Below, in pieces: positions 1-64,000 of a stretch of 64,000 nt of DNA. Under the pieces are notes generated by a model. The model had not been told where the DNA came from. It worked only from the letters and a program-made list of their open reading frames with translations, and made no database searches. How positions within the stretch are numbered: position 1 is the stretch's first letter; each line of letters begins with the position of its first letter. The stretch covers positions 1,060,988 through 1,124,987 of the forward strand of contig NZ_JH719942.1 in NCBI RefSeq assembly GCF_000275825.1, given 5' to 3'. This stretch comes from Saprospira grandis DSM 2844 (GTDB lineage Bacteria; Bacteroidota; Bacteroidia; Chitinophagales; Saprospiraceae). The translations under genes were made by a program, and so were the position numbers.

Positions 1-146
1 GGCAAAAACTTCTGCGGTCCCTTGGCCTAGCGATGTGCAGCAGTGGCCGTCAGGCCAGACCAAGGCGCTGCAAGCGCCGCAGGGCCGAGCGAACAGCGAG
101 CTGCGAAACGTAGCGCCCGCAGCCTGCTGCGGGAGGCCCCAAAAAA
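1..146. repeat. GC-rich interspersed intergenic repeat (family member, 'CCCCAAAA' end orientation)
   Basis: Shares the modules cagggccgagcgaacagcgagc...gaaacgtagcgcc...ggaggccccaaaaaa with many other copies in the window. GC is far above the flanks. Confidence 0.6.
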
Positions 147-166
147 TAAAACAAATCCCCTTAAAT

Positions 167-685
167 ATGCGTATATTTACAGTTATTATTTCATTCTTTT
201 TTTTGCTGAGTTGTTCATCTTCTCCAGAAGCTGTGGCCGAGCAGCCTGCGCCGGTGCCTGTAGAAAAAGAAGAAGCCGCCGCTCCACCTGCAGCCGAGCC
301 AGAGCCTATTGCGGTCATAGATAGCAGTGCGCCCAAGCGGGCCCAAAAGCCCAGTTTGCGGCCAGCTTTTCCTCAGTTTGATAGTTTGGCCCATGATTTT
401 GGGGAAATTATTCAGGATTCGGTACTTCGGCATCGCTTTCATTTTGAGAATATTGGAGAGCGGCCTTTAGAGATAGAATCGGTGCAGGGGAGTTGTGGAT
501 GCATACAGGGCAGTCAGCCATTTTTGCCTATTGGGCCGGGCGAAAAAAGTTATATTGATGTCCGTTTTGATAGTCGGGGGCGGCAGGGAGCTGAGTACAA
601 ATACGTTTTGGTTAATTGGAAGGGCAAAGAGGAGCCATTGAAGTTGGAAGTCCGGGCAAAAGTCTTGTTAAAAGAGAAAAAATAG
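167..685 (+). CDS. DUF1573-like lipoprotein (start moved to Met45 of the ORF; upstream part is repeat)
   Basis: Signal peptide MRIFTVIISFFFLLSC. The motif HDFGEI...FxFxNxGxxPLxI..V.GSCGC is typical of DUF1573. Confidence 0.55.
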   Translation: MRIFTVIISFFFLLSCSSSPEAVAEQPAPVPVEKEEAAAPPAAEPEPIAVIDSSAPKRAQKPSLRPAFPQFDSLAHDFGEIIQDSVLRHRFHFENIGERPLEIESVQGSCGCIQGSQPFLPIGPGEKSYIDVRFDSRGRQGAEYKYVLVNWKGKEEPLKLEVRAKVLLKEKK

Positions 686-722
686 TGGTATATTCGAGAA
701 GATAACCAAAAAACTATTTTCG

Positions 723-1436
723 ATGAAAAACTTTATCTTTTTGGCCTTTTTAGGGGCCTTGCTATTGGGGCAAACGGCCTGTAAACGCAGCGTAGAAGGC
801 GAGACGCAGAGCTGGGAGGCCAACAAGGGAAATGTACAGAAGCTATCGGCTAAGTACAGTAATTTTAAGCCTGCATTTGAGGAAATCTTAAAAAAAGCGG
901 AGGCCAAAATGACCGAAGCGCAGGCGATGACTGATGAGAAGGCCAAGATTTCGGCCATGGCCGAGGCCAACTCGATTATTCGGCCCAAATTTGTTCAGGG
1001 CTTAGAAGGGATGGACCGCAAGATTTCTACTTTGGAGGACCTAATGGCCAAGGCGAGTCAGCAATCTACGGACCATAGCGACCGCGATGCCGCTTGGGCA
1101 GCTAAAAGCAGTGGTGAGCGGGCTATTCGGGAGGCTCGTGAGCTTATTCGCGGCGCCAAGGTGAGCTCGGCAGCAGTAGCCGATGGCATTATTAATGATG
1201 CAGAGCGGCAATTGAGTTCGGCCCAAAAGCGCTTGCAAGAAGTGGTCAAAACGGCCCAGAAAAAAGCCGATGAGCAAGAAAAAGCAAAGGCCGATCAGAA
1301 AGCGGAAGAAACCGCTAAGCAAGAAGTTGAAGAGAAAAAAGCTTCGCCCATCAAATGTGGGTACTGCGGTACGATGAACAAGCCTGGCAGCTTAAAATGT
1401 AGCTCTTGTGCTGCCCCCTTAGAGGCCAATAAATAG
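723..1436 (+). CDS. hypothetical lipoprotein with a coiled-coil and a C-terminal zinc-ribbon (CxxC...CxxC)
   Basis: Lipobox LLLGQTAC. The protein is K/E/A-rich and helical, and ends CGYCGTMNKPGSLKCSSCAAPLE. Confidence 0.5.
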   Translation: MKNFIFLAFLGALLLGQTACKRSVEGETQSWEANKGNVQKLSAKYSNFKPAFEEILKKAEAKMTEAQAMTDEKAKISAMAEANSIIRPKFVQGLEGMDRKISTLEDLMAKASQQSTDHSDRDAAWAAKSSGERAIREARELIRGAKVSSAAVADGIINDAERQLSSAQKRLQEVVKTAQKKADEQEKAKADQKAEETAKQEVEEKKASPIKCGYCGTMNKPGSLKCSSCAAPLEANK

Positions 1437-1452
1437 GTGGAACTAGGGGCAT

Positions 1453-1500
1453 AAAAAAGCCGCAAAGGAGAAATTCCTTTGCGGCTTTGCTGTTTTTATT
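1453..1500. terminator. bidirectional rho-independent terminator
   Basis: AAAAAA-GCCGCAAAGG-agaaatt-CCTTTGCGGC-TTTgcTGTTTTTATT. It lies between convergent genes. Confidence 0.6.
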
Positions 1501-2026
1501 GGCCAAAAATCTGCGCCCAATAATAGCCCCATTCGCTATCTTCATCGGCAACAAAGCCTGCACCCATAAAGCGGGCGTCGGGGTCCAGCATATTTTTAAG
1601 ATGGCCAGGGCTGTTGTACCAGAGCTCAAAAACGGCGGCGGCTGTGGCGGTGCCCACCGCAATATTTTCGGACATAGGGAAAAGCTCCGTTTGGCAAAAG
1701 GGCTTAATTTTTTCAAAGGTATCGGCTACTTTTTTTAGTTTTCGGCCTTTGCGGTCATAGAGCCCATGTTCAAAATATCCGTCTATTATCATATCTTTGG
1801 CATGATATCTTGCTGCCCAACTGAGTTCCTTAGACCAGCTGAGGGCTGCCAGCCCCCTAGTTTGTCGAAGTTCATTAACGAGTTCTAGCAACTTTTGCTC
1901 CTCACTCTTATTAGAAGAAGCAATGCGTTCATTGCCCTGCGGCAAGCCCTTAAAACTCTGCGCCTCTAGGCGAAGGGCCGCCATAGAGAGCAAAGTCAAT
2001 AGGATGAAGAAGATTTGAAATTGCAT
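1496..2026 (-). CDS. CAP/SCP/PR-1 superfamily secreted protein (YkwD-like)
   Basis: Signal peptide. The motifs ...YHAKDMIIDGYFEH...ENIAVG...ELWYNSPGHLKNML... resemble the CAP domain. Confidence 0.55.
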   Translation of the reverse strand: MQFQIFFILLTLLSMAALRLEAQSFKGLPQGNERIASSNKSEEQKLLELVNELRQTRGLAALSWSKELSWAARYHAKDMIIDGYFEHGLYDRKGRKLKKVADTFEKIKPFCQTELFPMSENIAVGTATAAAVFELWYNSPGHLKNMLDPDARFMGAGFVADEDSEWGYYWAQIFGQ

Positions 2027-2051: not shown

Positions 2052-3521
2052 ATGAAACAGCTATTTTGTCTGCTCGTTTTTTTGGGAGCCAGCCTTTTTG
2101 CTGAAAGTTGGGCCCAGACAAATTCTTGTCAAACGGTAGAACTCTATCTTTATGCCAAAGATAACAGCGGCTTGATTGCAGATGCAAATATTCGCCTTTG
2201 GCGGCCTGCCGATAGCCTGAGTTACCGCCTAAAAACCGATTCTCTGGGCCGTTGTCGGGCTTGTTTGCCCTTGGCCAAAAAGGAATATCAGGTCCAAGTT
2301 CGACACAAAATTTTTTCTACTCAAAATTTTTCGCTGCAACTCGACGGAAGCGATAGTACGATCTATAAAAAAATAGGCCTAGACCGACTGCCGGGCTATT
2401 TGCTCGAGCTCAGTATTACCGAGTTTTTGCAGGGCCAAGGCGATAGCCTAGCCGCTGGCGAATATAGCCTAGAGGGCGTCACGATCGAAATCTATAATAA
2501 AACGCAGTATAAACAGGAGCTCCGCCTAGTGGAACATCCCCATCATGAAATTTCTTTTTTGATGGAGCAGGGCAATGAGTACATTTTTATGCTCCGCAAA
2601 CAGGGCTATTATAGCAAGCGTATGCGGGCCAATGTGAATGTTAATGATTGCATTTTGTGCATGGAGGGCTTTGGAGAGCTTACCCCCGGGGTGGCCGAAT
2701 CGCTCACGCAGGACAATAGCATGGGCACTTTGGTCAGCAATGTAAATTTGAAGCCCTTGGCCGTGGGCGAAAAAATGAAGTTGGACAATATTTACTATGA
2801 TTACGGTAGCTCGCAAATTCGGCCCGAAAGCTATGCCACCCTCGACCAATTGGCCGAGATGATGCGCGACAACCCCAATGTGTATATGGAACTTTCGGCC
2901 CATACCGATTGCCGAGGGAGCAAAGCCTTCAATTTGGAGCTTTCGCAGAATCGGGCCAATAATGTGGTCCAATATATTCAAGAACGCCTCCCCAATGGGG
3001 CCGATCGGGTTAAGGCACAGGGCTATGGCGAGTCTAAACCCCTCAATTCTTGTGTCGATGGCATTAGCTGTAGCGAGGAGTTGCACCAACAAAATAGACG
3101 AACCGAGCTGTTGGTCCTCGATGTGGTCGATGATGAAGATTATATCAACCGCCCGCTGGCCTCAATCATGCAAGAAGAGCTGGAGTCCGAGATTTTGGCC
3201 GCCAATAATAGCTCTTACTTTAAAGAAAAGGACCCTAGCCAGCAAAAAGCACAACAAGAACCCAGCATTCCCGGCCCAATTCCCCCAAATTATAGCGGCT
3301 ACAAAATTGAGCTGAGCCGCAGCCAAGAGAGCCCAGCCCTAGACCACCCTATTTTTATGGCCTTTTCAGAGGTCTTTCTAGATATTGACGAGCAGGGATT
3401 TATCAGTTTTATGGTGGGCGATTACCCCGCCGAGGAGGAGGTCAATAAGGCCCTAGACAAATTTCGTTCACGCTTTTCTAAGGCAAAGGCAGTTTATTAC
3501 AAACTGGGAATTCGACAATAA
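2052..3521 (+). CDS. OmpA-family outer membrane/peptidoglycan-associated protein
   Basis: Signal peptide. OmpA C-like region NIYYDYGSSQIRPESYATLDQLAEMM...SAHTDCRGS...NLELSQNRANNVVQYI...NRRTELLVL. Confidence 0.8.
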   Translation: MKQLFCLLVFLGASLFAESWAQTNSCQTVELYLYAKDNSGLIADANIRLWRPADSLSYRLKTDSLGRCRACLPLAKKEYQVQVRHKIFSTQNFSLQLDGSDSTIYKKIGLDRLPGYLLELSITEFLQGQGDSLAAGEYSLEGVTIEIYNKTQYKQELRLVEHPHHEISFLMEQGNEYIFMLRKQGYYSKRMRANVNVNDCILCMEGFGELTPGVAESLTQDNSMGTLVSNVNLKPLAVGEKMKLDNIYYDYGSSQIRPESYATLDQLAEMMRDNPNVYMELSAHTDCRGSKAFNLELSQNRANNVVQYIQERLPNGADRVKAQGYGESKPLNSCVDGISCSEELHQQNRRTELLVLDVVDDEDYINRPLASIMQEELESEILAANNSSYFKEKDPSQQKAQQEPSIPGPIPPNYSGYKIELSRSQESPALDHPIFMAFSEVFLDIDEQGFISFMVGDYPAEEEVNKALDKFRSRFSKAKAVYYKLGIRQ

Positions 3522-3523: not shown

Positions 3524-3686
3524 TTTTGGGGCTGCCCCTGCGGCCTGCGGCCTTGGGTCGGGCTATGTCGCAGCTCGCTGTTCGCTCGGCCCTGCGCTTT
3601 TTCGCTACGCTCAAAAAGCTGGGTCTGGCCTGCGGCCACTGCTATCTATCCCTCAGCCTGCGGCCCTTTGGGCCTGCTAGACGCAA
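3524..3686. repeat. GC-rich interspersed repeat (TTTTGGGGCTGCCCC...GCCTGCTAGACGCAA form)
   Basis: Near-identical to 6981-7193 without the internal insertion. Confidence 0.7.
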
Positions 3687-4449: not shown

Positions 4450-4598
4450 TTTGCAGGGCGCGCAGCGCCCGCAGGCCTAGCGATGCGGAGGGGGGCGGCG
4501 AAGCCGCAGACCGAGCCAGCTTGCTGGTGAAGGGCCGAGCAGACCTGCGAGCCCCAAAACGTAGCGCCTGCCGTAGGCAGGAGGCCCAAAAAAAATCC
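4450..4598. repeat. GC-rich interspersed repeat
   Basis: Carries the gcctagcgatgcggagg...gaagggccgagcagacctgcgagcc...ggaggcccaaaaaaaa modules. Confidence 0.6.
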
Positions 4599-4625: not shown

Positions 4626-6758
4626 TTACTTTTTCAGTTTCATATAATCTTTAAGGATAAAGGCGACCTCTTCGAGGTAAGCGTCTTTTTCTAGGCCGGC
4701 ATGCCATTTCTCAAAGCTTTTGGCCTTCACGCTATCGAGAGCGATTTGCTCCTTATCGGCCTTGAGGTTATAGATAGAAAAGTCCTCAATTTTGGGCATC
4801 ATATCCTTATACTGTTCGGCCTCTTTATCGGTTTTGGCCTGATGGGCCTCATAATCTTCTAGCTGAAGTGGATAAACGGTTTCGCCTTGTTGTTTTTCCA
4901 GCCATTTTCCGTGCTCTTCTAGCAGCTGGAAAGTTTTGCTTTTTGCTTGGCGTTTTGCGCTTTTGCTTTGCAGTTTGGGCAAGGCCTTCATTTTCTTTTT
5001 ATGGTAATTGGCGGGATCAATTTCGGACCAAGCCATGGGATAATCCTCATCTTTTTCGCCTACTTTGAGGTAGCTATAGCTACCGGGCAGCACGATATCG
5101 GGTTCAACCCCTTTGAGTTGGGTAGAGCCGCCATTGATACGATAGAACTTTTGGATCGTAATTTTGAGGCTACCGAGTGCGCCTAAATCTTTGTAGCGAG
5201 GCGGCACCACTGCGTCTAGGTCCATAAAGCGCTGCACAGTTCCCTTACCAAAAGTAGAGGGGCTGCTGCCGACAATAATGGCGCGGCCATAGTCCTGCAA
5301 AGCGGCGGCCATAATCTCGGAAGCCGAGGCAGAATAGGCATTTACGAGAATAATGAGGGGGCCCTTATAGAGGGCGCCGGCCTCTTTATCTTCTAGTACA
5401 TAGGGGCGATTATCGCGGCTTTTGACCTGTACCACGGGGCCACGGTCAATAAATAGGCCAGTCATTTTGACCACATCAGAGAGCGAGCCGCCACCATTAA
5501 AGCGCAGGTCGATGACGATGCCATCAATATTTTCTTGGAGTAATTTGCGGACCTCCAATTCCACATCGGTAGCACAGCGGCGGCCTTTGGGGTCTTGAAA
5601 ATCGGCATAAAAGCTACGCAGATCAATGAGGCCCATTTTCACGCCGGCCTTTTTGTGTTCTACGATAGCCGATTTGGCATAACTTTCTTCTAGGACCACC
5701 ACATCGCGGATGATTGGAATCACCTTAGTTTCGCCACTTGTTTTCTTGACGGTTAGGCGCACCTCGGTGCCTTTTTTGCCTCGAATCATGGGTAAAACGT
5801 CATCAATGCGCATATCTACTACATTGACGGCTTCTTCATTGCCTTGGGCCACCTTAACAATTTTGTCATTGACCTCTAGCTCGCCTTGTTTCCAAGAGGC
5901 TGATCCGGGCACAATATTCACCACCTTAATGTAGCCATCTTCTTGGCGAAGCTGGGCACCGATTCCCTCCAACTTGCCCGACATACGGATATTAAAGTTT
6001 TCTTTTTCTAGTGGGGGGAAATAGCCAGAGTGCGGTTCGTGGGCATTGGCAAAAACATTAACATAATTGGCAATACGGTCGTCGCGGCTATCTTTCTTAA
6101 TATTTTCGGACCATTCTCGGTAGCTTTTGAGTAGCTTTTCGCGTTCCTCTTTTTCTATTTCCTCAAAGGTTTTGATCTTATCAACTTCTTGGGCTTTTTC
6201 TTGGGCTTTTTCTTGTCGCTCTAGGCGGTCGTGCACACGGCCAAGGACCTGCAATTTGAGGTAATCCTCCCAGCGGGCTTTTAGTTCTTCGGGGTCCTTG
6301 AGGAACTCTAATTTTTCGCCATCCATTTGAAACTCGCCTTTTTGGGCAAAGCGAAAGGGTTTGGCCAAAATGTCTTCATAGTAGCCTTCTACCTGCTTAA
6401 TTCTTTGGTCAAAAGTGTTATTGACCAGATTAAAAAAGCTAAAATCGCCAGCTTGGGCGGCATCATCGAGTTTAAATTTGAAGTCTTCAAACTTTTTGAC
6501 ATCATCGGCCAAGAAAAAGCGCTTATTGAGGTCCATCCGCTTCAGGTAAAGAGTATAGACCTTTTCAGAAAACTCATCATTGATGGCTTCTGGCGCATAA
6601 TGGTTGTAGCGCATACTTTGGAGCAGCACTTCGAGCAGCAGTTCTTCTCGGTTAGAGAGGTCCCCACTAATTTGGGGTTGATTATTTTGCCCTTGCTGCC
6701 AGCGGAAGGCAATGAGTAGGCTACAAGCGGCAGTAATTAAGAGGAGTTTACGGATCAT
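4626..6758 (-). CDS. prc: S41 family carboxy-terminal processing peptidase (tail-specific protease)
   Basis: PDZ plus S41 core (GLIDLRSFY...IDLRFNGGGSLSDVV...GPLIILVNAYSASASEIMAAALQDYGRAIIVG). 710 aa, N-terminal signal. Confidence 0.85.
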   Translation of the reverse strand: MIRKLLLITAACSLLIAFRWQQGQNNQPQISGDLSNREELLLEVLLQSMRYNHYAPEAINDEFSEKVYTLYLKRMDLNKRFFLADDVKKFEDFKFKLDDAAQAGDFSFFNLVNNTFDQRIKQVEGYYEDILAKPFRFAQKGEFQMDGEKLEFLKDPEELKARWEDYLKLQVLGRVHDRLERQEKAQEKAQEVDKIKTFEEIEKEEREKLLKSYREWSENIKKDSRDDRIANYVNVFANAHEPHSGYFPPLEKENFNIRMSGKLEGIGAQLRQEDGYIKVVNIVPGSASWKQGELEVNDKIVKVAQGNEEAVNVVDMRIDDVLPMIRGKKGTEVRLTVKKTSGETKVIPIIRDVVVLEESYAKSAIVEHKKAGVKMGLIDLRSFYADFQDPKGRRCATDVELEVRKLLQENIDGIVIDLRFNGGGSLSDVVKMTGLFIDRGPVVQVKSRDNRPYVLEDKEAGALYKGPLIILVNAYSASASEIMAAALQDYGRAIIVGSSPSTFGKGTVQRFMDLDAVVPPRYKDLGALGSLKITIQKFYRINGGSTQLKGVEPDIVLPGSYSYLKVGEKDEDYPMAWSEIDPANYHKKKMKALPKLQSKSAKRQAKSKTFQLLEEHGKWLEKQQGETVYPLQLEDYEAHQAKTDKEAEQYKDMMPKIEDFSIYNLKADKEQIALDSVKAKSFEKWHAGLEKDAYLEEVAFILKDYMKLKK

Positions 6759-6980: not shown

Positions 6981-7193
6981 TTTTGGGGCTGCCCCGCCCT
7001 TTGGGCGGGTCGGGCTATGTCGCAGCTCGCTATTCGCTCGGCCCTGCGCTTTTTCGCTACGCTCAAAAAGCTGGGTCTGGCCTGCGGCCACTGCTATCTA
7101 TCCCTCAGCCAGATTTAATTGCGCTGCTTTGGCTATAGTTTGCTATGAATTTTTGGCTATGGCCTGCGGCCCTTTGGGCCTGCTAAACGCAAA
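6981..7193. repeat. GC-rich interspersed repeat with a nested ~55-bp insertion (AGATTTAATTGCGCTGCTTTGGCTATAGTTTGCTATGA...)
   Basis: Aligned by eye to 3524-3686 and 18043-18385. Confidence 0.7.
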
Positions 7194-10113: not shown

Positions 10114-10428
10114 ATGCAAAACCAAGATAAGCAAGAACTTAATATTCAGATTTCTGAAGAAGTAGCTGATGGCATTTATTCTAACTTGGCCATCATTAGT
10201 CATTCTCCGGATGAGGTAGTTTTAGATTTCGTTCGTTTGGTCCCTAATATTGAGCATGCTCGGGTAAAATCTAGGGTATTGATGAGTCCGCATCATGCCA
10301 AGCGTTTATTGGCGGCTTTATCGGATAATTTGCAGCGTTACGAGCAAGAGTTTGGTCCGATTCAGGACCCTAGAAATGGCAGCCGCAACAGCAGTTTGTC
10401 TTATTCTGGTCCTAAGGGGCAGGCTTAA
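10114..10428 (+). CDS. DUF3467 family protein
   Basis: ...IYSNLAIISHSPDEVVLDFVRLVPNIEHARVKSRVLMSPHHAKRLLAALSDNLQRYEQEFGPI matches the family as I remember it. Confidence 0.75.
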   Translation: MQNQDKQELNIQISEEVADGIYSNLAIISHSPDEVVLDFVRLVPNIEHARVKSRVLMSPHHAKRLLAALSDNLQRYEQEFGPIQDPRNGSRNSSLSYSGPKGQA

Positions 10429-10454
10429 ATTAATACCGCCCAAAATCAAGCCAA

Positions 10455-10478
10455 AAGCCCTTTTTAAGGGCTTTTTTT
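10455..10478 (+). terminator. rho-independent terminator
   Basis: AAGCCC-ttttt-AAGGGCTT-TTTTTT. Confidence 0.55.
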
Positions 10479-10502
10479 ATGGGCCTAGGGGTATTTCTCT
10501 GG

Positions 10503-10668
10503 ATAAGGCGGCCAAGCCGCCGCAGAGGAGCGCAGCGACTTGGCTGAGGGGCTGTAGCAGGGCCGCCGCAGGCGGCAGACCGAGGCGGCTTGCCGCCGAA
10601 GGGCCGAGCGAACAGCGAGCTGTGCAATGGCCCGACCCGCAGCGAAGCGCAGGGGCAGCCCCAAAAAA
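10503..10668. repeat. GC-rich interspersed repeat (GGGGCAGCCCCAAAA end)
   Basis: gccgccgcagaggagcgcagcgac...gctgtagcagggccgccgcaggcggcagaccgaggcg...gaagggccgagcgaacagcgagctgtgcaatggcccgaccc... Confidence 0.7.
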
Positions 10669-10674
10669 GGGGTA

Positions 10675-12510
10675 TTAATCAAATAATTGCCAGAGAACAG
10701 AGAGTCGGAGCCAGTTATTGGCCTCGGCATATTGGTAGCTACTAAAGTAATTTTGGTTTTCCCAGAAGTAGCTAATATTTTGGTAATTGAGGCCAATTCG
10801 GAAGCGATAGACCTTGAGGACGGCAAAGGCGTCTAGTTGGGGATAAAACTGTAGGAGTTGTTGGTCTTGCAGGTAAAATTGGTTCCAAGTTGGGGCATAG
10901 GCTTGGGCGTAGAAGGCTGTTTGGTAGCGTAGGCGGAAGCCCAGTTGCCAGCTTGCGTTTCGGAAATATTTGCCTTTAAAGTAGAGTTTTTGTTGGAGTT
11001 GGCCTTGGGGCAGGGGCCAGTATTTTTCTTCTCCAACTTGTAGCTGCCCAACTAGGCGAGTCTTGGAATAAAAGCCTTTGTAGTGGAAGCTTTGCTGGAG
11101 TTCGGCTTGCAGCAAGCTCAGGCTACTATTGAGTTGTTCGCTTTGGCCGTTTAGGTTGTAGATAATGGGGTTTTGGCGGAGGAAATACTGGGCTTTGAGG
11201 CTTCCCTCCTGCCCTTTCCAGCTCAGGCCGAGGCCGAGATTGGCTTCTTGGCTTTGGCCAAAGTCATTGTTCCAGATTTCTTGGCCAGAGAGATAGGCTT
11301 TTTGTTCTAAAAAGCTGGGGCGAAACTGCTGCATTTGTCCCCAGGCTGCTACAGCTAGTCCTTTAGACAAGGGGCGTTCATAGCGCAGTTTGAGCTGATA
11401 ATCTAGGGTTTGATCTCCAAATAAAACTTGGCCTGAGGCGCTTAGATTTTGGCCTTGATAATTGGCGGCAGCAAAAACGCTATTGAGTTGTTCTAGGGGC
11501 AGGGGTTCTTGTGTAATGGCTTGAAATCTGTGGCCCAAAAAGAGCTGAATATCAGCGAGCTGATAGCTCAATTGATTTTGAATCAGCTGTTGTTGCATGG
11601 CCATTCTCAGGCCTCGGTTATTAACCTGAAGTGGTCCGTAGAAGCTACTATCTGTGGCTAGATTATTATCAAAAAACTTGAATTGTTCTTCTTGGTAATG
11701 CAGTTGGTGCTCCCAGTTTTTCCAGTTTTGGCGATAGAGCAGTTCCAAAAAGCGATTTTCCTGTCGGGGCGAGTCATTATCGCCTTCATTGAGGCTAGTT
11801 TCGGCAGTTTCTAAAAAATCATTGCTCAGGCCTTGCAAAACACTATCTTGCAGGCCGCCATTTTCGCTTTGATTTTGGCTAGAAGAGACGACAAACAGGC
11901 TGCCCTTATAGTTGGCTTTTTGGTAGTGAAGCTGCAGGCCGAGGTCTCTATGTTGGCTAGAGAGGCTATTAAAATAGCCTCTTTGGCTCAGCACGCTATA
12001 CTGGATGCCATAATAGAGTTGTTTATTGTATTGCTGGGCCAATTCGGCTTTGAGGGCCAGATTTTTCAGATTAATTTGGCTGTAATAAAGGTTGGTTAGG
12101 GCTTTATCATTTTCTACCTCATAGATGCGGAGTTGTTTGGGGCGCAGGCGGTAGCGGTCCAGATGTTCACCAGCGCCTAGGCGGGGGCCTAATTCTTTTT
12201 CTTCATACTGCCAAGTTTTGGCAAAAACGGGCGTTCCCCAATGGCCTAAATTCCCGTAGTTTTGGGTCCAACTTTCTTCTGCCCAGCCCCAGGCAAAATC
12301 ATGCATATAATGGAGGCTAGTATCTAGTTTGGCCCATTTGTTTTTGCTTAGGGCATAGCGCCATTTTATCTTCAGGCTATCGCCTAATTTCTGAAAGCGT
12401 TCGGCTTCTGTGGCTGCGGGCAGGCTATCTTGCTGAAGGCTATCTACTGGCGTTTGGGCCCAGCTGCTACTGGCCCAAAAGAGCAGAGTAGCGAAAAGAA
12501 CAATTCGCAT
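10675..12510 (-). CDS. hypothetical outer-membrane beta-barrel protein
   Basis: Signal peptide (...SSSWAQ). Q/N/Y/G-rich alternating pattern. C-terminus ...SVLWQLFD. Confidence 0.45.
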   Translation of the reverse strand: MRIVLFATLLFWASSSWAQTPVDSLQQDSLPAATEAERFQKLGDSLKIKWRYALSKNKWAKLDTSLHYMHDFAWGWAEESWTQNYGNLGHWGTPVFAKTWQYEEKELGPRLGAGEHLDRYRLRPKQLRIYEVENDKALTNLYYSQINLKNLALKAELAQQYNKQLYYGIQYSVLSQRGYFNSLSSQHRDLGLQLHYQKANYKGSLFVVSSSQNQSENGGLQDSVLQGLSNDFLETAETSLNEGDNDSPRQENRFLELLYRQNWKNWEHQLHYQEEQFKFFDNNLATDSSFYGPLQVNNRGLRMAMQQQLIQNQLSYQLADIQLFLGHRFQAITQEPLPLEQLNSVFAAANYQGQNLSASGQVLFGDQTLDYQLKLRYERPLSKGLAVAAWGQMQQFRPSFLEQKAYLSGQEIWNNDFGQSQEANLGLGLSWKGQEGSLKAQYFLRQNPIIYNLNGQSEQLNSSLSLLQAELQQSFHYKGFYSKTRLVGQLQVGEEKYWPLPQGQLQQKLYFKGKYFRNASWQLGFRLRYQTAFYAQAYAPTWNQFYLQDQQLLQFYPQLDAFAVLKVYRFRIGLNYQNISYFWENQNYFSSYQYAEANNWLRLSVLWQLFD

Positions 12511-12526
12511 AGAGCTTTAATTTTTG

Positions 12527-12568
12527 CGCAAAAAAAAGCCATGGACCCAAAGAGTCGATGGCTTTTTA
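12527..12568 (-). terminator. rho-independent terminator downstream of the HU gene
   Basis: The minus strand reads AAGCCAT...ATGGCTT followed by TTTTTTTT. Confidence 0.5.
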
Positions 12569-12593
12569 TCAGAACTTAGAAAGAAAAAGCAAT

Positions 12594-12920
12594 TTACTTC
12601 TTCTTTTTCTTGTCAGCAACAGCTTTAAGGCTAGTGCGTAGATCTTTGTTATCTACAGTACCAGCAAGCTCTTTACCTGCTTTAAACTTTACAGTTACCT
12701 TATCGCTGATTTGGATTTCCTTCTGCGTAGAGGGGTTGATTCCTTTACGGGCAGCACGGTAATTCACATCAAAAGTACCGAAACCCACCAAAGTGATTTT
12801 TTGGCCTGCTTTCAAAGTGTCAGCAATAGTTTCTAGGGTAGCATTCAAGGCTGCAGCAGCATCAGCTTTTTTCAAGCCAGCAGCTTCTGCAATTTTGTCG
12901 ATCAAATCTCCTTTGTTCAT
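12594..12920 (-). CDS. hup: HU family DNA-binding protein
   Basis: MNKGDLIDKIAE...TLVGFGTFDVNYRAARKGINPSTQKEIQI...K-rich tail. Confidence 0.9.
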   Translation of the reverse strand: MNKGDLIDKIAEAAGLKKADAAAALNATLETIADTLKAGQKITLVGFGTFDVNYRAARKGINPSTQKEIQISDKVTVKFKAGKELAGTVDNKDLRTSLKAVADKKKKK

Positions 12921-13149
12921 AGTTAAATTCTAGATTATCCAAATGATACAGTAATTCTTGCGCCCTAAAAAGCTAGCTTGGGGTAGTTTGAATAGGCAGG
13001 GGGGCTCTGTATCTAGGGCTTCTTACTGTTCTTCAAACCAATGGTCGAAGGTCTAGCTTTCGGCGCTTACAAATTTATGTCCTTTTGTAGCATTTCCAAA
13101 CATTTACCCAAAAAAAGCAAATAAAGGCCCTAAAAAAGGCCATTTTAGT

Positions 13150-13370
13150 ACTGTTTTGGGGCCTCCGCAGCCAAGCTGCGGCGGTTACTCCCTTGGGTCG
13201 TCGAAGACGAACTAAAGTTCTTGTTGTCGCTTCGGGGCTCGCAGGTTTGCTCGGCCACTCGTTTTTTCGCTGCGCTCAAAAACTCGGTCTGGCCCTCTGG
13301 GCCAGCCCTCCGCATCGCTAGGCCAATAAAGGCCTTCGGCCCAGAGCGGCTTCGCCGCCAAAAGAGCCTG
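13150..13370. repeat. GC-rich interspersed repeat
   Basis: ttttggggcctccgcag...ggggctcgcaggtttgctcggcc...ttttttcgctgcgctcaaaaactcggtctggcc...gcatcgctaggcc. Confidence 0.6.
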
Positions 13371-50751: not shown

Positions 50752-52638
50752 TTAAGGGGCTTTAGCTTGCTGCTTATCCACCAGATAGATGACGCCATAA
50801 GTAAAGAAGCCGCCAATCACGAGGCCGAGCAACAAAATAGAAGCGCCACCACGGAATAGGCCATAATAAGAGCCCACCATGAGCAGTAGTGCCGAGAACC
50901 AGCCCAGGTAGATCATTCTGAAGCGGCCATTGGCAAATAGGGTTCTACGCACCTGCTTATTAAAGAGGGCCATACAAAAGCCTGCGGAGGCAAAAATGGC
51001 CCAAAAGAGCAAGACGGCTAAAAGGGTAGCTCCCCAGCTTCTGGCTGCTTTACTGGCTGCGCCTAGCTTTTCGTAAGCTTCTAGCTTGGGCATTTCTATG
51101 GTGGTAAACTCTGAAGAGAGGGTATTCCATACATTATAATAGCCCAAATCGTAGCCTAGGGGCCAAACCCCTACTCCAGCCAAGCCCATATCATTGATAA
51201 ATTGATATTTGAGGCGAAGCGTACGCACATCATCATAGTAGAGTTCGGTACGTTCTATATCATCAATTTGTAGGGCGCCCCCTACTTTCTTAAAGATCGT
51301 ATCTTCTTTGGCCCAAACATAAGAGTAGTAGTTAGAGTCAATTCCTACGGCTGTACTATCTCGCATCACAAAATCATTTTGGATTTTGCTATAGGGCACA
51401 TAGCCTTCTAGATCAAAGCCACGGTTGCTACTTTTCCAGAGGGTTCCATAATTGGGCAGGGCCAAAATGAGTCGGTTGGTGGCATCTCGCCCAATAGAGG
51501 CAATATAATGCTCTACTGATGAGCGAATATCTTCTTCGCCAGAAGCGGCGGTAAAGTTAAGCGGTGCTCCTGGTTTCTTAATAATTTCGCCTGTTTTGGG
51601 GTCATTGTGGTAATCTATAGCCTTAATGATAAAGAAATCGACATGTTCTTTCATTTTGCCCAGATTAAACACCCCTTCAATATCTACAGCTGGAACGCTC
51701 ATACAAACCGCTAGGTCTGGCGAAACTGCTCTTAGGGTAAAGGAAAGTTGGCGAACAAACTTTAGGAACTCTATCTGGGCTAAGGCGGGCACATTCTCAA
51801 AGTTAATCTCTACGCCATCGGCCTTAGAGGTATCCATCAGGTAGACAATATTATCAATGAGGTTTTGCCTTTGCTTGGCATTTTCGGGAGCCAAGAAAAA
51901 AGCATTATTATCATAGCTATGGCTCGTAATACTAAGCAGCACCTTACAATCTTTGGCATGAGCGGTGGGCACAATGCCATTATCGGGATCATCGCCCCCC
52001 AAAAAGTCATGAATAACGGTAGAGTCTAGCGCTTCTCCAGTATAGGGGTCAATATCGTAGCCATAATAGGCAATGGCCGAAAGCAGGCCATAGTCATAGG
52101 TTTTGTAGGCATTGCCATTAAAGTGTGCATGCCAGCCAAAAACGGTGACAAACTGGCTAGCTGTTCCTTTGACCAATTTAGGCACTCGAAACTCAGAGCT
52201 ATCGATAGCGCTAATAGAATCTCTTTGGCGCTCAAAATCGAGTTTAGCGGCTAGGTCGGCATCGCTAGGGGTCATCCACCATTGGGTCAAGAGGTCAATA
52301 AAACGCTTTTTATTGTTGGGGTTTTCAATATCCCGCTTTGCGTTTTCGTCCTCAATCAGTTCTTCTAAGGTGGGGTCATATTCCCGTTCAAAGTCTTCTT
52401 TTTTAAAAGAGGGTAGCTGTTTATACTCATCGGATTTGGTCCGATAAGCATTTTTGACCGTTGTTTTTCGGCTTTCAAACTCATCGCGCAGGGCCCGAGT
52501 AGCTTTTTTCTCTAGGGCGTTGCCTCCGCCTTTTTTGGCAGTTTGGACGGCAATACGGCTTTGTCCCCAGCTATTGCTTGCCAAAAACAAGCAGCTAATC
52601 AGGAGTAATTTAGCCGTTATATGAATGAAAATTCGCAT
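50752..52638 (-). CDS. secreted GH18-like protein with a C-terminal four-TM anchor, paralog B
   Basis: KVLLSITSH, DGVEINFE, VDFFIIKAIDYH, LILALPNYGTLW. Same architecture as paralog A. Confidence 0.55.
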   Translation of the reverse strand: MRIFIHITAKLLLISCLFLASNSWGQSRIAVQTAKKGGGNALEKKATRALRDEFESRKTTVKNAYRTKSDEYKQLPSFKKEDFEREYDPTLEELIEDENAKRDIENPNNKKRFIDLLTQWWMTPSDADLAAKLDFERQRDSISAIDSSEFRVPKLVKGTASQFVTVFGWHAHFNGNAYKTYDYGLLSAIAYYGYDIDPYTGEALDSTVIHDFLGGDDPDNGIVPTAHAKDCKVLLSITSHSYDNNAFFLAPENAKQRQNLIDNIVYLMDTSKADGVEINFENVPALAQIEFLKFVRQLSFTLRAVSPDLAVCMSVPAVDIEGVFNLGKMKEHVDFFIIKAIDYHNDPKTGEIIKKPGAPLNFTAASGEEDIRSSVEHYIASIGRDATNRLILALPNYGTLWKSSNRGFDLEGYVPYSKIQNDFVMRDSTAVGIDSNYYSYVWAKEDTIFKKVGGALQIDDIERTELYYDDVRTLRLKYQFINDMGLAGVGVWPLGYDLGYYNVWNTLSSEFTTIEMPKLEAYEKLGAASKAARSWGATLLAVLLFWAIFASAGFCMALFNKQVRRTLFANGRFRMIYLGWFSALLLMVGSYYGLFRGGASILLLGLVIGGFFTYGVIYLVDKQQAKAP

Positions 52639-52681
52639 TTCGTTCTGCTTTTCAAATTCTCAATGGGGTGTCTAGCTAGCC

Positions 52682-53716
52682 TTATTCGGCTTTAAATACG
52701 GGGATTTTTTTCTGCAAAAAGATTTCTTGCACCCGTTCCCGCTTAATAATCTCCAAGATTTCGGCTCGTTTGAGCTGAAACTTGGCCACCTTAATATAGA
52801 CCCGAACTCCGGTGACCGTATTGAGGTTTCTGAAGCACATTTTGAGTTGCTTATAGGTTCCGGCTTTATAGGCGGGGATCACTCCAAAAGGAGCTGGGTT
52901 GAGGCCTTGTGTTCCTACATAATTATCGTTAGCTCGAGGGTCTTTAAAGTCGTATCGGAGGTTTCGGGCCAAAGAGTTGTTGGCCATAGGGAGGGTTTCG
53001 GTGAGGCCTAGTCCGTAGGCCATTAGGGGTTCAGAAACCTCTGCGGCAATCCAGCTAAGCTTAGGGTTGGCCTTGAGGTTTTGGTATTCTTGATGGGTTT
53101 TATCGCCAATGCCGATCCAGTAGACGGCATATTGATAATCGCCATCGAGTAGGGCTTCGGTGATACAGCTATCGGCTAGTGATTGATAATCGAGGGCGGG
53201 CTGTAGGTCCAGCTGAATTTCGGTAATATCTGGATAGGGGATAGTGTCGGGATAGGCGGTGCGCATGGTATCAATAGAGGTAGTGACCATAACATCATCG
53301 AGGACCAGGGAGTCTTGAAAAGACATGGCTGGAAATTTATAGATTTGCATCCGAAAGGTCCGGCCCAGTAGTCCTCTATTTTTCATCACAAAGTTGTGCG
53401 TTCCGTCTTTAGAGGCCATAAAAGACTCTCGTTCTAGGCTACGCACTTTTTTCATGCGCATTTTAAATTGGGTACCAGGCAATTCTACAATGAGGCGGCC
53501 CAATTTGCGGGCACCAATAGTTTGCATATCGATGACTACTTGTTCGCCTTGTTTGAGGTCATAGGAGAGCACCTTTTTTTTCCAGGCACCCAATTCTACG
53601 AGTTCATCAAAGAGGACAATTCGTTCGTCGTAGGAGCTTTGGGCCTGTAGGGGGCTATATAGCAGGCATAATAATAGGGCAAACCACTGCCAATGCAGCT
53701 TTTTGGGTATTCTCAT
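52682..53716 (-). CDS. hypothetical secreted protein (start at MRIPKK)
   Basis: Signal peptide ...PLQAQ. Confidence 0.4.
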   Translation of the reverse strand: MRIPKKLHWQWFALLLCLLYSPLQAQSSYDERIVLFDELVELGAWKKKVLSYDLKQGEQVVIDMQTIGARKLGRLIVELPGTQFKMRMKKVRSLERESFMASKDGTHNFVMKNRGLLGRTFRMQIYKFPAMSFQDSLVLDDVMVTTSIDTMRTAYPDTIPYPDITEIQLDLQPALDYQSLADSCITEALLDGDYQYAVYWIGIGDKTHQEYQNLKANPKLSWIAAEVSEPLMAYGLGLTETLPMANNSLARNLRYDFKDPRANDNYVGTQGLNPAPFGVIPAYKAGTYKQLKMCFRNLNTVTGVRVYIKVAKFQLKRAEILEIIKRERVQEIFLQKKIPVFKAE

Positions 53717-53917
53717 ATATCCGTAGCATCTAAGGTTCTGAAGCAAGTTTGGCAATTAAAAGTATAGTGTGTTGGCCAAAATTTGCTAGTACAAGCCCAA
53801 ATTAAAGCTTTTTTCAAAATTAACCTTAAAATTCTAGGGCCTTTTCTAAACAAAACCTTAAAGGTCTATCAATCGTCTACCTTTCAAAGTTTTAGGGCCA
53901 AATGTTTTCTAGATTTT

Positions 53918-54470
53918 CTTTTGGGGCTGCCCCAGCCTTTGGCTGGGTCGGGCTGTGTCAGGGCTCGCAGGTCTGCTCGGCCCTGCGCGGGCTTTGCCCG
54001 CTGGGTCTGCGGCTTTGCCGCCCCCTTTTCCATCCCTCAGCCGGGGCGCTGCGCGCCTTGGCAGGCGGCTTTGCCGCCTGCTATATGAATGAGCTGAGGC
54101 CCGGAGGGCCGAAGGCTATGCAGCTAGTGTTGGCCCCCAAGGCCAACGCTAGCTGCCCCCAGGCGGAGGCGGCTTTGGAGGGTCTTTTGCCTGAAATGCA
54201 ATATGTTGAGGGCCAATTTTAATAAAAAGCAAGAAAAAAAGTGGCCAGCCGCCTACCGCCGGCCGGGTCCAATCAGCCCGCAGGGCTGTCTAAACAAAAT
54301 GCCATTTTGCAGCGGCTCTGCCGCTGCAAGGGCCTAGCGCTGTGCAGGGGTGGCCGTTAGGCCAGACCCAAGCCGCCAAAGGCGGCTGCAGGGCCGAGCA
54401 GGCCTGCGAGCCCCGAAACATAGCGCCGCAGCAAAGCTGCGGAGGCCCCAAAAGAAAAAAGTCTAGCCCT
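53918..54470. repeat. composite ~550-bp repeat arm (three GC-rich modules plus a unique spacer), arm A of an inverted pair
   Basis: The reverse complement of 59340-59885 aligns along the whole length. Confidence 0.75.
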
Positions 54471-59268: not shown

Positions 59269-59339
59269 AAGGGCGTTTTTATCCCTTTTCTTTTTTGTAG
59301 CTTGGGAGCAGCAGTTTACTGTTGCTCCCTTTTTTTATT

Positions 59340-59885
59340 CTTTTCTTTTGGGGCCTCCACAGCTTTGCTGCGGCGCTATGTTTCGGGGCTCGCAAGCCTG
59401 CTCGGCCCTTCGCAAAATTTCGCTTTGCTCATTTTGCTCGGTCTGGCCTACGGCCACCCCTACACAGCGCTAGGCCCTTGCAGCGGCAAAGCCGCTGCAA
59501 AATGGCATTTTGTTCAGACAGCCCTGCGGGCTGATTGGACCCGGCCGGCGGTAGGCGGCTGGCCACTTTCTTCTCTGCTTGAATTTAAATTTGGCCCTCA
59601 ATATATTGCATTTCAGGCAAAAGGCCCTCCAAAGCCGCCTCCGCCTGGGGGCAGCTAGCGTTGGCCTTGGGGGCCAACACTAGCTGCATGGCCTTCGGCC
59701 CTTCGGGCCTCAGCTTATACATCCTGCAGGCGGCAAAGCCGCCGCAAAGGCGCGCAGCGCCTCGGATGAGGGATGGAAAAGGGGGCGGCGAAGCCGCAGA
59801 CCAAGGCCGTCAGGCCGAAGGGCCGAGCAGACCTGCGAGCCCTGACACAGCCCGACCCAGCCGAAGGCTGGGGCAGCCCCAAAAT
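59340..59885. repeat. composite ~550-bp repeat arm, arm B of the inverted pair
   Basis: Reverse complement of 53918-54470. Confidence 0.75.
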
Positions 59886-59947
59886 AAAAAAACACCTAGC
59901 CCCTAAAAAGAGACCAGATGTTATATATCATCTAAAAAAGAGGAAAA

Positions 59948-62095: not shown

Positions 62096-62488
62096 CTAAA
62101 GAGTTGGGTACTCTTTACGGTTGGCATCACTCCAGAGACCTTCTAAGTTGTAGAATTTTCTTTTTTCCTCATTAAAAACGTGAATCACCAGCGTAAAATA
62201 ATCGAGGAGGCGCCAGTGGCCGCCCTGTTTGCCTTCTGTATGATTGGGGCGTTCGCCCAGTTGTTCCCAGAGGGTTTTCTCTATATTTTTGGCAATACCG
62301 TTGATATGTGTAGAGGAGGTACCATGACAAATTAGGAAAATATTTGTGCTGGCCTCATCTACATTAGAGAGGTCTAAAGAGATAATATTTACCGCTTTGC
62401 GGTCTTGCATAGCTTCTACAGCGACGGCCAATAGGTCCTGCAATTGAGGCATTTTTTCTTCTTTTTGCGAAAGCTCTTGTTTATTCAA
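62096..62488 (-). CDS. rsfS: ribosome silencing factor RsfS (Iojap family); likely true start at MPQLQD (62452)
   Basis: ...AVNIISLDLSNV...DYFLICHGTS..HI...NIEKTL...GHWRLLDYFTLVIHVF... Confidence 0.8.
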   Translation of the reverse strand: MNKQELSQKEEKMPQLQDLLAVAVEAMQDRKAVNIISLDLSNVDEASTNIFLICHGTSSTHINGIAKNIEKTLWEQLGERPNHTEGKQGGHWRLLDYFTLVIHVFNEEKRKFYNLEGLWSDANRKEYPTL

Positions 62489-62580
62489 ATCGACTTATAT
62501 TAAATTGTGGCCCCATTAAAAGACCAAAGAGAGTTAAAGGCCCTAAAGTTAGGGCTAAAAATCAAAAAAGCAGCTATGTT

Positions 62581-63351
62581 ATGCCCAAGCAATCAGATAA
62601 CAGTCTTTTTATCGGAAAGGTTGCCATCCGTCATAAACGCCTAGATTCGACCAACCGCTATGCCTTTGACTTCTTGTCAAAAAGTTTACCAACGGAAGGA
62701 ACTGCCATTATTGCAGACGAACAATGGGCGGGCCGCGGCCAAAAAGGCAACAACTGGCTATCTGAAGCGGGACAGAACATAGCCCTAAGCCTTATTTTGC
62801 GGCCAAAGTTCCTACTTGTTAAGGAACAATTCCTTTGGAACATGGCCATTTCCTTGGCGGTGCATGAGGTCCTGACAAATTGCCAGCTTCAACTGCCGCA
62901 TTATATTAAGTGGCCCAATGATATTTATGTGGGCAACTTTAAGGTGGGGGGCATCTTGATCGAAAGCCAATTGCGGGGCAGCTACCTCGACTGGTCTGTG
63001 GTGGGCATTGGTTTGAATGTTTTTCAAAAAAGCTTCTCGCCTAAATTGCCCAACCCTAGCTCATTAGCCCTACTGACAGAAAAAAAATTGAACATGGATT
63101 CAATTCTGTCACAACTATATGCAGCCATAGAGCGTCTATACCTCAAACTACGGCAAGGCCGAGGCCAAGAACTTTGGCCCTTATATGAAAGCAAACTTTG
63201 GCGCTATAAGAAATGGAGCAAGTTTAAATGGCAGGAAAAGGAACATGAAGGCCGCATTTGGGGCGTAGCTCCCAATGGGCAACTCAAAATTATAGACCGA
63301 AAAGGACAGCTACATTTGTTCAACTTTAAGGAAGTTCAATATATACTATAA
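62581..63351 (+). CDS. birA: biotin--[acetyl-CoA-carboxylase] ligase
   Basis: GRGQKGNNW (GRGRxGRxW-type) motif and the BPL catalytic domain, with a short C-terminal domain. Confidence 0.75.
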   Translation: MPKQSDNSLFIGKVAIRHKRLDSTNRYAFDFLSKSLPTEGTAIIADEQWAGRGQKGNNWLSEAGQNIALSLILRPKFLLVKEQFLWNMAISLAVHEVLTNCQLQLPHYIKWPNDIYVGNFKVGGILIESQLRGSYLDWSVVGIGLNVFQKSFSPKLPNPSSLALLTEKKLNMDSILSQLYAAIERLYLKLRQGRGQELWPLYESKLWRYKKWSKFKWQEKEHEGRIWGVAPNGQLKIIDRKGQLHLFNFKEVQYIL

Positions 63352-63458
63352 TTCCTTTTTTTCGGGCATACTATTTGTTGTTAAGCATTTTACAATACTG
63401 ACGATGTTGTAAGTTAGAGAATTCAAGGGACGAGCTTGGATTCTCTTTTTTTTTGGTC

Positions 63459-63920
63459 TTATTGTAAGATAGGCGGTTCATCTTTGCCCTCTTCCTTAAT
63501 TTCTTCTATATCTGAAAAAGGAATATCTAATGGTTTATTCTTCTTTTTGGAAGGCAACAAGCGGCTGCTGCCAAAATCCCAAAGGGTTTTTAGGTATAAA
63601 AAGCCCAAAAACGGACTAAAAGCGGCTAGGCCCAATAAACTTCCGCCTATTCCCAGCCAAATATTTTTGGCATATAGGCCTTTGATATAGTTATATACTC
63701 TAAGCAGCAACTGCCGATTGATGAGCAAGACCCCAACAGATAAGGCGGCAACAATCCACCAAACAAACTGCTTGAGAAAGCCAATGACCACATAAATTAG
63801 TACCGAGACAACAATTAGGGCCAATAACAATTGTATAAAGCGAGCTAAGGGGCTGCTCTTTTCTTTTTCTTCTAAGTTCAACATAGATCCGTATCTTTGG
63901 TCTGCTCTAAATATAGACAC
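63459..63920 (-). CDS. hypothetical membrane protein
   Basis: Two or three TM helices. Its C-terminus overlaps the intergenic region. Confidence 0.35.
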   Translation of the reverse strand: MSIFRADQRYGSMLNLEEKEKSSPLARFIQLLLALIVVSVLIYVVIGFLKQFVWWIVAALSVGVLLINRQLLLRVYNYIKGLYAKNIWLGIGGSLLGLAAFSPFLGFLYLKTLWDFGSSRLLPSKKKNKPLDIPFSDIEEIKEEGKDEPPILQ

Positions 63921-63959
63921 TTTTTAAAGGAGCTGCCTTATATTGGTCCCCTTTTTAGC

Positions 63960-64000
63960 CAGAGAAGGCGGCGCAGCCGCCGCAGAGGAGCGCAGCGACT
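63960..64000. repeat. start of another GC-rich repeat (truncated by the window end)
   Basis: ggcggcgcagccgccgcagaggagcgcagcgac. Confidence 0.5.

Follow-up and report, generated by a model that had tools for sequence, protein, structure and literature searches.

What are the GC-rich sequences that recur between the genes of Saprospira grandis, and by what means could they have come to fill so many spacers? The question is raised by a 64,000-nucleotide (nt) stretch of strain DSM 2844 (contig NZ_JH719942.1, positions 1,060,988 to 1,124,987; hereafter the window), in which a first-pass annotation, made from the letters alone, had described a dyad-symmetric mosaic repeat family. Our analysis confirmed a modular, mosaic and non-coding family and added four properties to that description, namely a closed multi-helix fold, conservation across a bacterial order, repeated doublets made of two subfamilies (A and B) and an alternating orientation of neighbouring copies. 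We read the units, with a probability of about 0.5, as structure-constrained, non-autonomous DNA repeats that need a factor supplied in trans, spread in the style of REP sequences and their RAYT enzymes, and are diversified by gene conversion. In kind they resemble REP/BIME/REPIN sequences, ERIC sequences and miniature inverted-repeat transposable elements (MITEs), but their architecture is their own.

The repeats form one family of discrete units

Units were called with a regular expression on the conserved core (GCTC[AG]C-N5-6-G[CT]TCGGCC), with an nhmmer profile and with a covariance model (CM) made from just five copies. The three methods agreed on an identical set of 21 full-length units, 10 on the plus strand and 11 on the minus strand, and one further copy is cut by the end of the window (63943-64000). 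The repeat family is real, and the four modules quoted in the first-pass annotation are all repeat families. The sequence TTTTGGGGCTGCCCC occurs nine times exactly and twice as a near match in the window, against an expectation of 0.41. The basic unit is ~120-140 nt long, or up to 175 nt with an internal insertion, so that the 140-220 nt first given for the elements holds when an optional 3' extension is taken in but not for the basic unit. The GC content of the units is 0.60-0.73 compared with 0.456 for the window; the published value for S. grandis, 46.6% (PMC10508125), is near the window's 45.6%. One protein encoded in the window is identical to SapgrDRAFT_0912 of DSM 2844, and window positions 10594-13214 match a contig assembled from the public sequencing run SRR345599 at 100% identity.

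Across the window, the plasmid of strain Lewin and two further, independent chromosomal regions (L041 and L042), we counted 60 units in 159 kb (one per 2.66 kb). Extrapolation gives a genome total of roughly 1,600 units, which at 120-200 nt each would make up roughly 5-7% of the genome. The Lewin plasmid (NC_016936; L037/L040; 55 kb) carries purine, pyrimidine and phenylacetate genes together with 23 units. Contigs assembled from short reads (Logan contigs L001 and L002) break off within units.

The units have no coding content, and peptides derived from them match only tiny S. grandis "hypothetical proteins". As had been suspected, long open reading frames (ORFs) drawn across units are artefacts: ORF 59302-59658 meets frameshifts and stops in a 93-97% identical paralogue, and ORF 10295-10678 lies in another frame over a real DUF3467 gene and is frameshifted in another strain. 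In the Lewin annotation, the "hypothetical proteins" SGRA_1996, 0372, 0131, 1720 and 0232, of 47-70 amino acids (aa), are translations of units.

Each unit has a fixed order of parts and a covarying fold

Read from the end that bears a run of T, a unit consists of the T-run, the 5' arm of helix P1 (GGGGC followed by CT or TG), hairpin H1, the 5' arm of helix P1b, the core, hairpin H2, the element YBGGTCTG, hairpin H3, a C-rich linker, the 3' arm of P1b, an invariant T and the 3' arm of P1. The core of ~20 nt is invariant (GCTCGC-N5-6-GCTCGGCCC) and probably unpaired, and the GGTCTG element lies 3' of it in every unit. H1 to H3 are three variable, perfect hairpins (short palindromes) set in a fixed scaffold, which P1, a 5-bp stem with an invariant bulged T, closes. 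Two subfamilies can be told apart by their ends: A has GGGGCCT...GCT-AGGCC and B has GGGGCTGCCCC...CCCT-CAGCC. Many copies also have a 3' extension, made of an optional TCGCTNCGCTC module, a hairpin (H4), CGCAAAATTGGACC and then an A-run. The TCGCTNCGCTC module occurs 13 times (0.13 expected), each time pointing the same way as its host unit, and reads GCGNAGC on the opposite strand, where most hairpin loops are GNA or AAA triloops closed by C-G. Such triloops are a motif of unusually stable DNA mini-hairpins. The tetranucleotide GTAG is limited to copies with GCGCTACG and is not conserved.

The inverted termini first attributed to the elements are not those of a single unit, which has one TTTTGGGGC end and another end (...T-CAGCC or ...T-AGGCC) that pairs with the 5' end; inverted unit ends are carried only by two ~540-bp doublets in the window (53915-54457 and 59342-59888). 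Short terminal matches are present (TTTTGG(GG)CCT / AGGCCAAA and TTTTTTGGGGCC / GGACCAAAAAAA), and the same arms form the covarying P1.

The fold was examined in a structural alignment, fitted to the model structure, of 38 copies from the window, two other strains and the metagenome-assembled genomes (MAGs) of four Lewinellaceae and two Saprospiraceae. Standard pairs fill 89.7% of cells, compared with 65.2% in shuffles and 25-47% when the partners are slid by 1-3 columns, and both sides change in 28 of 34 pairs. The covariation score of 0.504, against 0.138, was reached by none of 500 shuffles. All five helices (P1, H1, P1b, H2 and H3) are supported individually; a further hairpin considered inside the core was rejected, as it shows no covariation and is disrupted in about half of the copies. 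P1 exists as GCGTG/CACGC (12 copies), GGCCT/AGGCC (10), GGCTG/CAGCC (8) and GGCCC/GGGCC (2), with a fifth type, GGCTT/AAGCC, on the plasmid; 35 of 35 copies have the bulged T. Among 21 copies, H2 shows 16 distinct arms, and its stem can flip from T5/A5 to A4/T4 about a fixed loop. The cells of P1, H1, H2 and H3 hold 699 Watson-Crick pairs, nine G-T and three A-C; G-T stays at ~1% on both strands, so that wobble pairs, with G-T and A-C both rare, were uninformative for assigning a strand. When folded as RNA, the complement of the T-run strand beat shuffles in all six units tested, with z down to -5.1.

The units of the window are as follows; every line but the last was called by nhmmer and CM, and any further support stands in brackets.

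21-144, minus strand: unit A (5' GGGGCCT..., 3' ...GCT-AGGCC), full length (nhmmer 6.9e-18; CM 127.5 bits)
3524-3661, plus strand: unit B (5' GGGGCTGCCCC, 3' CCCT-CAGCC), 3' extension to ~3700 (H4 and CGCAATTGGACCAAAAAAA); starts 2 nt past the stop of gene 2052-3521
4471-4592, minus strand: unit A, 3' extension down to ~4428; a terminator hairpin lies directly 5' of the T-run
6981-7113, plus strand: unit B, then a short nested AT-richer element (7113-7160), 3' extension to ~7195
10539-10666, minus strand: unit B, 3' extension down to ~10490; starts 8 nt past the stop of porin gene 10675-12510
13154-13327, plus strand: unit A with an extra module between H1 and core, extension to ~13365
15369-15501, minus strand: unit B, 3' extension down to ~15312; starts 4 nt past the stop of a TetR gene
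18043-18181, plus strand: unit B, then a full nested AT-richer element (~18181-18330), 3' extension to ~18371
18977-19110, minus strand: unit A' (P1 GGCCC/GGGCC)
24116-24251, plus strand: hybrid unit with A-type P1 arms and B-type interior, the sole unit in a divergent (promoter) gap
25048-25181, minus strand: unit B, 3' extension to ~24988, then a host terminator hairpin; starts 4 nt past a stop codon
33112-33237, plus strand: unit A, 3' extension to ~33290, then a terminator hairpin
35236-35382, minus strand: unit A' (GGCCC/GGGCC) with a long 10-bp H1, extension to ~35190
39783-39904, minus strand: unit A in the contractile operon, directly past the stop of the PAAR gene
42324-42457, plus strand: unit A in the contractile operon, antisense to the genes
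47361-47480, minus strand: unit A in the contractile operon, 5 nt past the stop of the Pvc16_N gene
48361-48495, plus strand: unit B in the contractile operon, extension to ~48525
53915-54457: doublet of unit B (53919-54045, plus), GC-rich middle (~54063-54300) and unit A (54328-54453, minus), T-run ends outward
59342-59888: second doublet, inverted, of unit A (59346-59479, plus), middle segment and unit B (59761-59884, minus)
63943-64000, minus strand: 3' extension of another unit, truncated where the window ends (match to TCGCTNCGCTC and module repeats)

Units favour the ends of genes and occur in both orientations

The claim that the elements occupy almost every intergenic gap is right in that units are widespread but is overstated: 18 of 53 gaps hold one (18 of 31 when only gaps of 100 nt or more are counted). 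By gap type, units are found in 7 of 9 convergent, 10 of 36 tandem and 1 of 8 divergent gaps, and in tandem gaps five are sense and six antisense. Both orientations also occur within the contractile operon (39783-39904, 42324-42457, 47361-47480 and 48361-48495), as the first-pass annotation had stated. The T-run end is the end closest to the coding region, and 7 of the 21 units start 0-8 nt past a stop codon. In the unit at 18977-19110, the junction of T-run and GGGG (TTTTTTAGGGGCC) holds the TAG stop of the protoglobin-STAS gene 19106-19978; because this stop codon lies within the unit, its insertion seems to have reshaped the 3' end of the gene. On the plasmid, antisense units have their T-run end 10-40 nt upstream of a start codon.

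Host terminator hairpins occur on either side of units, and separate terminators flank many of them, several units lying upstream of the terminator and some beyond terminators. Units between stop codon and terminator would be transcribed. That the units are themselves intrinsic terminators, as had been considered, does not hold, since the T-run comes before the GC-rich stem and the reverse strand finishes with a run of A. Units showed no association with any class of gene, the flanking genes in S. grandis and in the other genomes being unrelated housekeeping genes; a gene-specific cis-regulator (riboswitch or leader) was rejected because the neighbours are unrelated and both orientations are present.

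Spacers filled in S. grandis are empty in related genera

The contractile injection operon, which resembles a type VI secretion system (35461-53755), allowed comparison of filled and empty sites. Its products are a sheath, three gp19-like tube proteins, DUF5908, VgrG (Phage_base_V), PAAR, gp25, Pvc16_N and a 1256-aa protein, and two GH18 genes precede it. Synteny extends to relatives with 61-73% protein identity, namely L023, L024/L025 and, from Aureispira, L026/L027. The operon spacers of these relatives measure 10-90 nt and hold no unit at E<=0.01. The PAAR spacer, which in the window holds the unit at 39783-39904, is empty in L023, L024 and L025, and the distant L026 and L027 have a different gene after PAAR. 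Because the syntenic spacers are short and unit-free, the units must have been inserted in the S. grandis lineage after its split from the sister genera. The mobility that the first-pass annotation had suggested is thus borne out by empty orthologous spacers in related genera.

Within the species, positions are stable. In other S. grandis strains (~95% nt identity), 12 of 12 comparable chromosomal units lie at the same sites, as do all but one of ~20 units across three plasmids; the paaZ gap of the plasmid in strain QB6, considered as an empty site, holds an internally replaced copy. There was thus no clean filled-versus-empty pair among the 12 chromosomal and ~20 plasmid units, and no direct repeats flank units or doublets, so that no target-site duplication was found, although no clean pair is available to settle the point.

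Orthologous units differ in patches, with H1, H2, H3, the core variant and whole loops changing jointly while flanks and P1 remain identical. The units affected (e48361, e53919, e10666, e15501 and e18043) are 81-91% identical compared with 91-99.8% for neighbouring genes. For example, the 5' half of the unit at 48361-48495 is replaced in strains L018, L020 and L028, and the unit at 10539-10666 has patchy replacement of H1, H2 and H3 in strain L031. From these comparisons we infer short-tract ectopic gene conversion between paralogous copies; the patchwise replacement of hairpins and core produces the mosaic of "shuffled modules". Consistent with this, the suggestion that the elements are recombination substrates is upheld by orthologous copies that differ in replaced hairpin and core patches.

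Doublets recur as composites, and a second element is nested beside units

Doublets measure 470-580 bp, have their T-run ends outward and consist in each case of one A and one B unit. They occur at two loci in the window, four on the plasmid and ~2 elsewhere on the chromosome, with shared middle segments. Because the same A-middle-B composite, with an AT-rich middle, recurs at four plasmid loci and a related one, with a GC-rich middle, twice in the window, the doublet is itself a repeated entity. The two window doublets share blocks of 92-97% identity, with both H2 hairpins replaced. The AT-rich middles of the plasmid doublets carry iterated AATAAAGAAATCTTTAATTAAAGA / AACGGAATCTTTATT (e.g. at 160-380, 5430-5660, 46300-46610 and 50355-50640). 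The window doublets are inverted copies of each other and bracket genes for an SprB-repeat protein sorted by the type IX secretion system, a 146-aa ORF and an SbtA-like transporter; such an arrangement could permit inversion. L028, the one other strain with sequence from this region, extends over the first doublet and into the SprB gene but not as far as the second doublet.

A different, AT-richer repeat is nested directly 3' of B-type units, at 7113-7160 and 18181-18330 in the window and at 21201-21400 of the CCB-QB6 plasmid (L038), and has imperfect inverted ends (AGATTTAAWYGC...TATAGTTTGC). On the CCB-QB6 plasmid it is a 198-nt insertion, missing from the Lewin and WH plasmids, which is flanked by a ~8-bp direct repeat (ATTTCATT / ATTTAATC) and carries the H4-plus-tail module.

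Neighbouring units alternate in orientation

Neighbouring units point in opposite directions in 51 of 56 pairs (p = 6e-11), and still in 43 of 48 (p = 7e-9) without the tight doublets. The opposite pairs number 18 of 20 in the window, 21 of 22 on the Lewin plasmid, and 6 of 6 and 6 of 8 in the independent chromosomal regions L041 and L042, respectively. On the plasmid circle with its 23 units this is the maximal alternation that an odd number allows. Two-copy loci of Lewinellaceae alternate in three of three cases, and both exceptions in the window fall in the contractile operon, where independent insertion is documented. Three unit pairs that span 1065-1068 bp enclose unrelated genes.

Several causes were considered. 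Selection against recombinogenic direct repeats found no support, as direct and inverted pairs share equal exact matches (median 14 nt). For the contractile operon, import of (+,-) pairs as cargo cassettes was rejected, as its gene order is colinear with that of unit-free relatives, and replicative inversion is unlikely where, as in this operon, gene order is conserved. The alternation is real and so far without an explanation.

The family extends across the Saprospirales, and the searches matched no described family

A 22-nt core pattern matches Lewinellaceae and uncultured Saprospiraceae MAGs whose GC content, among the matches listed, runs from 36 to 64%; both families belong to the order Saprospirales. 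These copies have the same architecture, usually with H2 missing, and copy number varies widely between genomes. Matches among PLSDB plasmids are confined to Saprospira plasmids, and viral contigs yielded no copy. Rfam 15 at gathering thresholds returned two tRNAs only from the window, permissive scans of two elements gave chance-level matches only, and a search of the accessible literature on Saprospira or Saprospiraceae repeats, MITEs, REP and RAYT found no description.

The search for a partner enzyme covered the Pfam-scanned window proteins and the annotated plasmid genes, within ~159 kb of S. grandis, and revealed no RAYT (Y1/HUH). The window's only insertion sequence (IS), an IS5/IS4-family element at 34148-35077, encodes a transposase (34254-35069; DUF4096 and DDE_Tnp_1) between 18-bp AT-rich inverted ends (GAGCTTGTTTAAATTTTT). 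It was rejected as parent since these ends are unrelated to the GC-rich units, a result that applies to the window and leaves the rest of the genome unsearched.

Other features of the window

Three tandem paralogous DUF6976 genes (19985-23070; ~75-80% DNA identity) have unit-free gaps between them. The two tandem tRNA-Gln(TTG) genes (13412-13484 and 13532-13604) score 64.1 bits each with Rfam and are the only tRNAs called by ARAGORN. A 1119-aa nSTAND1 NTPase with WD40 beta-propellers (28208-31567) adjoins two genes of ~480 aa, one encoding an OMP_b-brl_2 outer-membrane beta-barrel and the other without a Pfam match.

Discussion

The fold of the units most likely matters as DNA, because pairing is almost exclusively Watson-Crick and half of the copies within operons are antisense. 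We propose that it would act as a single-stranded or extruded cluster of hairpins, which an enzyme supplied in trans would recognise along with the core. Spread would then proceed as for REP sequences and RAYTs and not by the cut-and-paste action of a DDE transposase, with the A-middle-B doublets as the likeliest mobile form, and copies between a stop codon and a terminator would reach mRNA 3' ends as a side effect. Several points weigh against this proposal. No partner enzyme is identified, and the sole window transposase (IS5 family) has unrelated AT-rich ends; no clean filled-versus-empty strain pair, from which exact ends, target site and any duplication could be read, was found; and the alternation is not predicted by a model of non-autonomous repeats served by a trans factor. 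Further, the pair counts come from an alignment that had been fitted to the model structure, and replacement of whole palindromes, rather than selection on DNA pairing, could also yield stems with Watson-Crick pairs only. Finally, the complementary strand folds well as RNA (6/6) and 13 of 20 units lie in the sense direction of an adjacent gene, and an RNA role may therefore exist for some copies.

A classical MITE is an unlikely alternative in which the ~500-bp A-middle-B doublet, or a unit with TTTTGGGGCC...GGCCAAAA ends, would be an IS deletion derivative moved by a DDE transposase encoded elsewhere, and single units would be solo ends. Doublets with outward ends do recur at several loci, the short terminal matches noted above may be inverted repeats, orthologous sites are empty in related genera, and the nested AT-richer element in the same gaps shows both insertion polymorphism and a ~8-bp direct repeat. 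However, the support that the first-pass annotation seemed to offer for a MITE has weakened, as its inverted termini are not the ends of one unit and neither a target-site duplication at any unit or doublet nor a parent IS was found, the ends of the window's IS5-family element being unrelated. In addition, the P1 arms exist as five complementary, covarying types in one genome, which a single transposase would not require; conservation lies on the internal core and the fold and not on the termini; and a fold and 22-nt core stretch common to families of 36-64% GC would be unusual for MITEs. We consider it more doubtful still that the units are RNA-level elements acting in cis in 3' untranslated or intercistronic regions of mRNA, where they would block 3' exonucleases, offer a processing site to an RNase or insulate translation. 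REP and ERIC elements have been shown to act at the RNA level in such ways, and the placement of seven units just past a stop codon, an eighth (18977-19110) that includes the stop, several units upstream of a terminator, the enrichment in convergent and depletion in divergent gaps, and the stable fold, with z down to -5.1 on the complementary strand, would all fit. Yet units in tandem gaps are near evenly sense and antisense, and orientations alternate within the plasmid pur and paa operons; since both orientations occur, half of the copies would present, as RNA, the complement of the asymmetric core and bulged T. The near absence of G-U (~1%) on both strands, the units beyond terminators, the lack of an Rfam family match and the lack of a gene-class association also speak against an RNA element.

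Least probable, in our judgement, is that the units are host-domesticated architectural sites, that is, oriented protein-binding sites of which inverted neighbours bracket genes as domain boundaries, loop anchors or recombination sites. Inverted neighbours acting in pairs would explain the alternation, with or without doublets and in the two-copy Lewinellaceae loci, and the core and bulged T, which stay invariant in all copies throughout the order, together with positions that are stable within the species, are in keeping with such sites. Against them stand a protein partner that is not known, sister genera that evidently function without units in the same operon, copy numbers that differ widely between genomes, hairpin turnover and mosaicism that resemble the dynamics of selfish repeats, and the location of both window exceptions to alternation in an operon with documented independent insertion. 

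Tentatively, we also entertain a reading in which an undescribed partner system of Bacteroidota has the units as its DNA substrate. Its dedicated enzyme or chromosomal protein would recognise the closed fold, the bulged T and the core, with copies working, or being generated, as inverted pairs that bracket genes. Such a system would account jointly for the order-wide conservation, the A/B heterodoublets and the near-perfect alternation.

Comparison with described families places the units beside several of them. Like the REP/BIME/REPIN-RAYT sequences of Proteobacteria (described in part in PMC3116915, PMC2817692 and PMC3733652), the units are GC-rich extragenic palindromes of very high copy number with mosaic modules, occur as singlets and inverted doublets at gene 3' ends and between operon genes, persist vertically at fixed sites, and are, presumably, folded single-stranded DNA substrates of a trans-acting enzyme. 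In contrast to a single REP hairpin of 20-40 nt, the Saprospira unit has 120-175 nt, five helices, a closing stem and an invariant core, and lacks a conserved GTAG or CGTC tag. Unlike REPINs, its doublets are always A plus B and ~500 bp long, and unlike BIMEs, in which clustered REPs alternate in orientation with defined short linkers, neighbours alternate at distances of 0.3-8 kb with genes between them, most gaps holding a single unit. The host, moreover, belongs to the Bacteroidota, and no RAYT was identified in the ~159 kb examined.

ERIC sequences (also IRU; Enterobacteriaceae and Vibrio) are imperfect palindromes of ~127 bp that occur across genera, intergenically and in both orientations, without coding content or a known transposase. 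The Saprospira units resemble them in these respects and in a copy number that is very different between species, but the two are unrelated in sequence. An ERIC sequence forms a single long imperfect hairpin; the unit is branched with replaceable hairpin cassettes, and its density (~1 per 2.7 kb) is far above that of most ERIC hosts. With MITEs (the Correia element of Neisseria, RUP and Nezha) and BOX, the units have in common that they are small, non-coding intergenic insertions with empty sites in relatives, putative short terminal inverted repeats, a modular build (BOX) and possible co-transcription with neighbours; unlike MITEs, they are GC-rich, are without a detected target-site duplication or related IS, are constrained in core and pairing, and are found order-wide. 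Finally, attC sites and the ends of IS200/IS605 likewise keep structure while sequence varies, with an invariant extrahelical base (here the bulged T) and a variable terminal hairpin, but the units have no integrase or cassette-array context and no R/L boxes, and occur on both strands without single-strand polarity.

Overall, at their extrapolated number, the units rank among the densest structured repeat families in a bacterium, and they break short-read assemblies and seed false gene calls. Genomes that range from 36 to 64% GC retain one fold of ~130 nt and one core of 20 nt, even as the hairpins outpace neighbouring genes in turnover, and this persistence shows how selfish or domesticated DNA structures endure. 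Should a dedicated partner system prove to be the correct explanation, the units would be more than another MITE and would represent a novel class of long-lived replicators or of elements that shape genome architecture. The alternation of neighbouring copies could, in turn, reveal either that copies arise in pairs or that the architecture of the genome is constrained.

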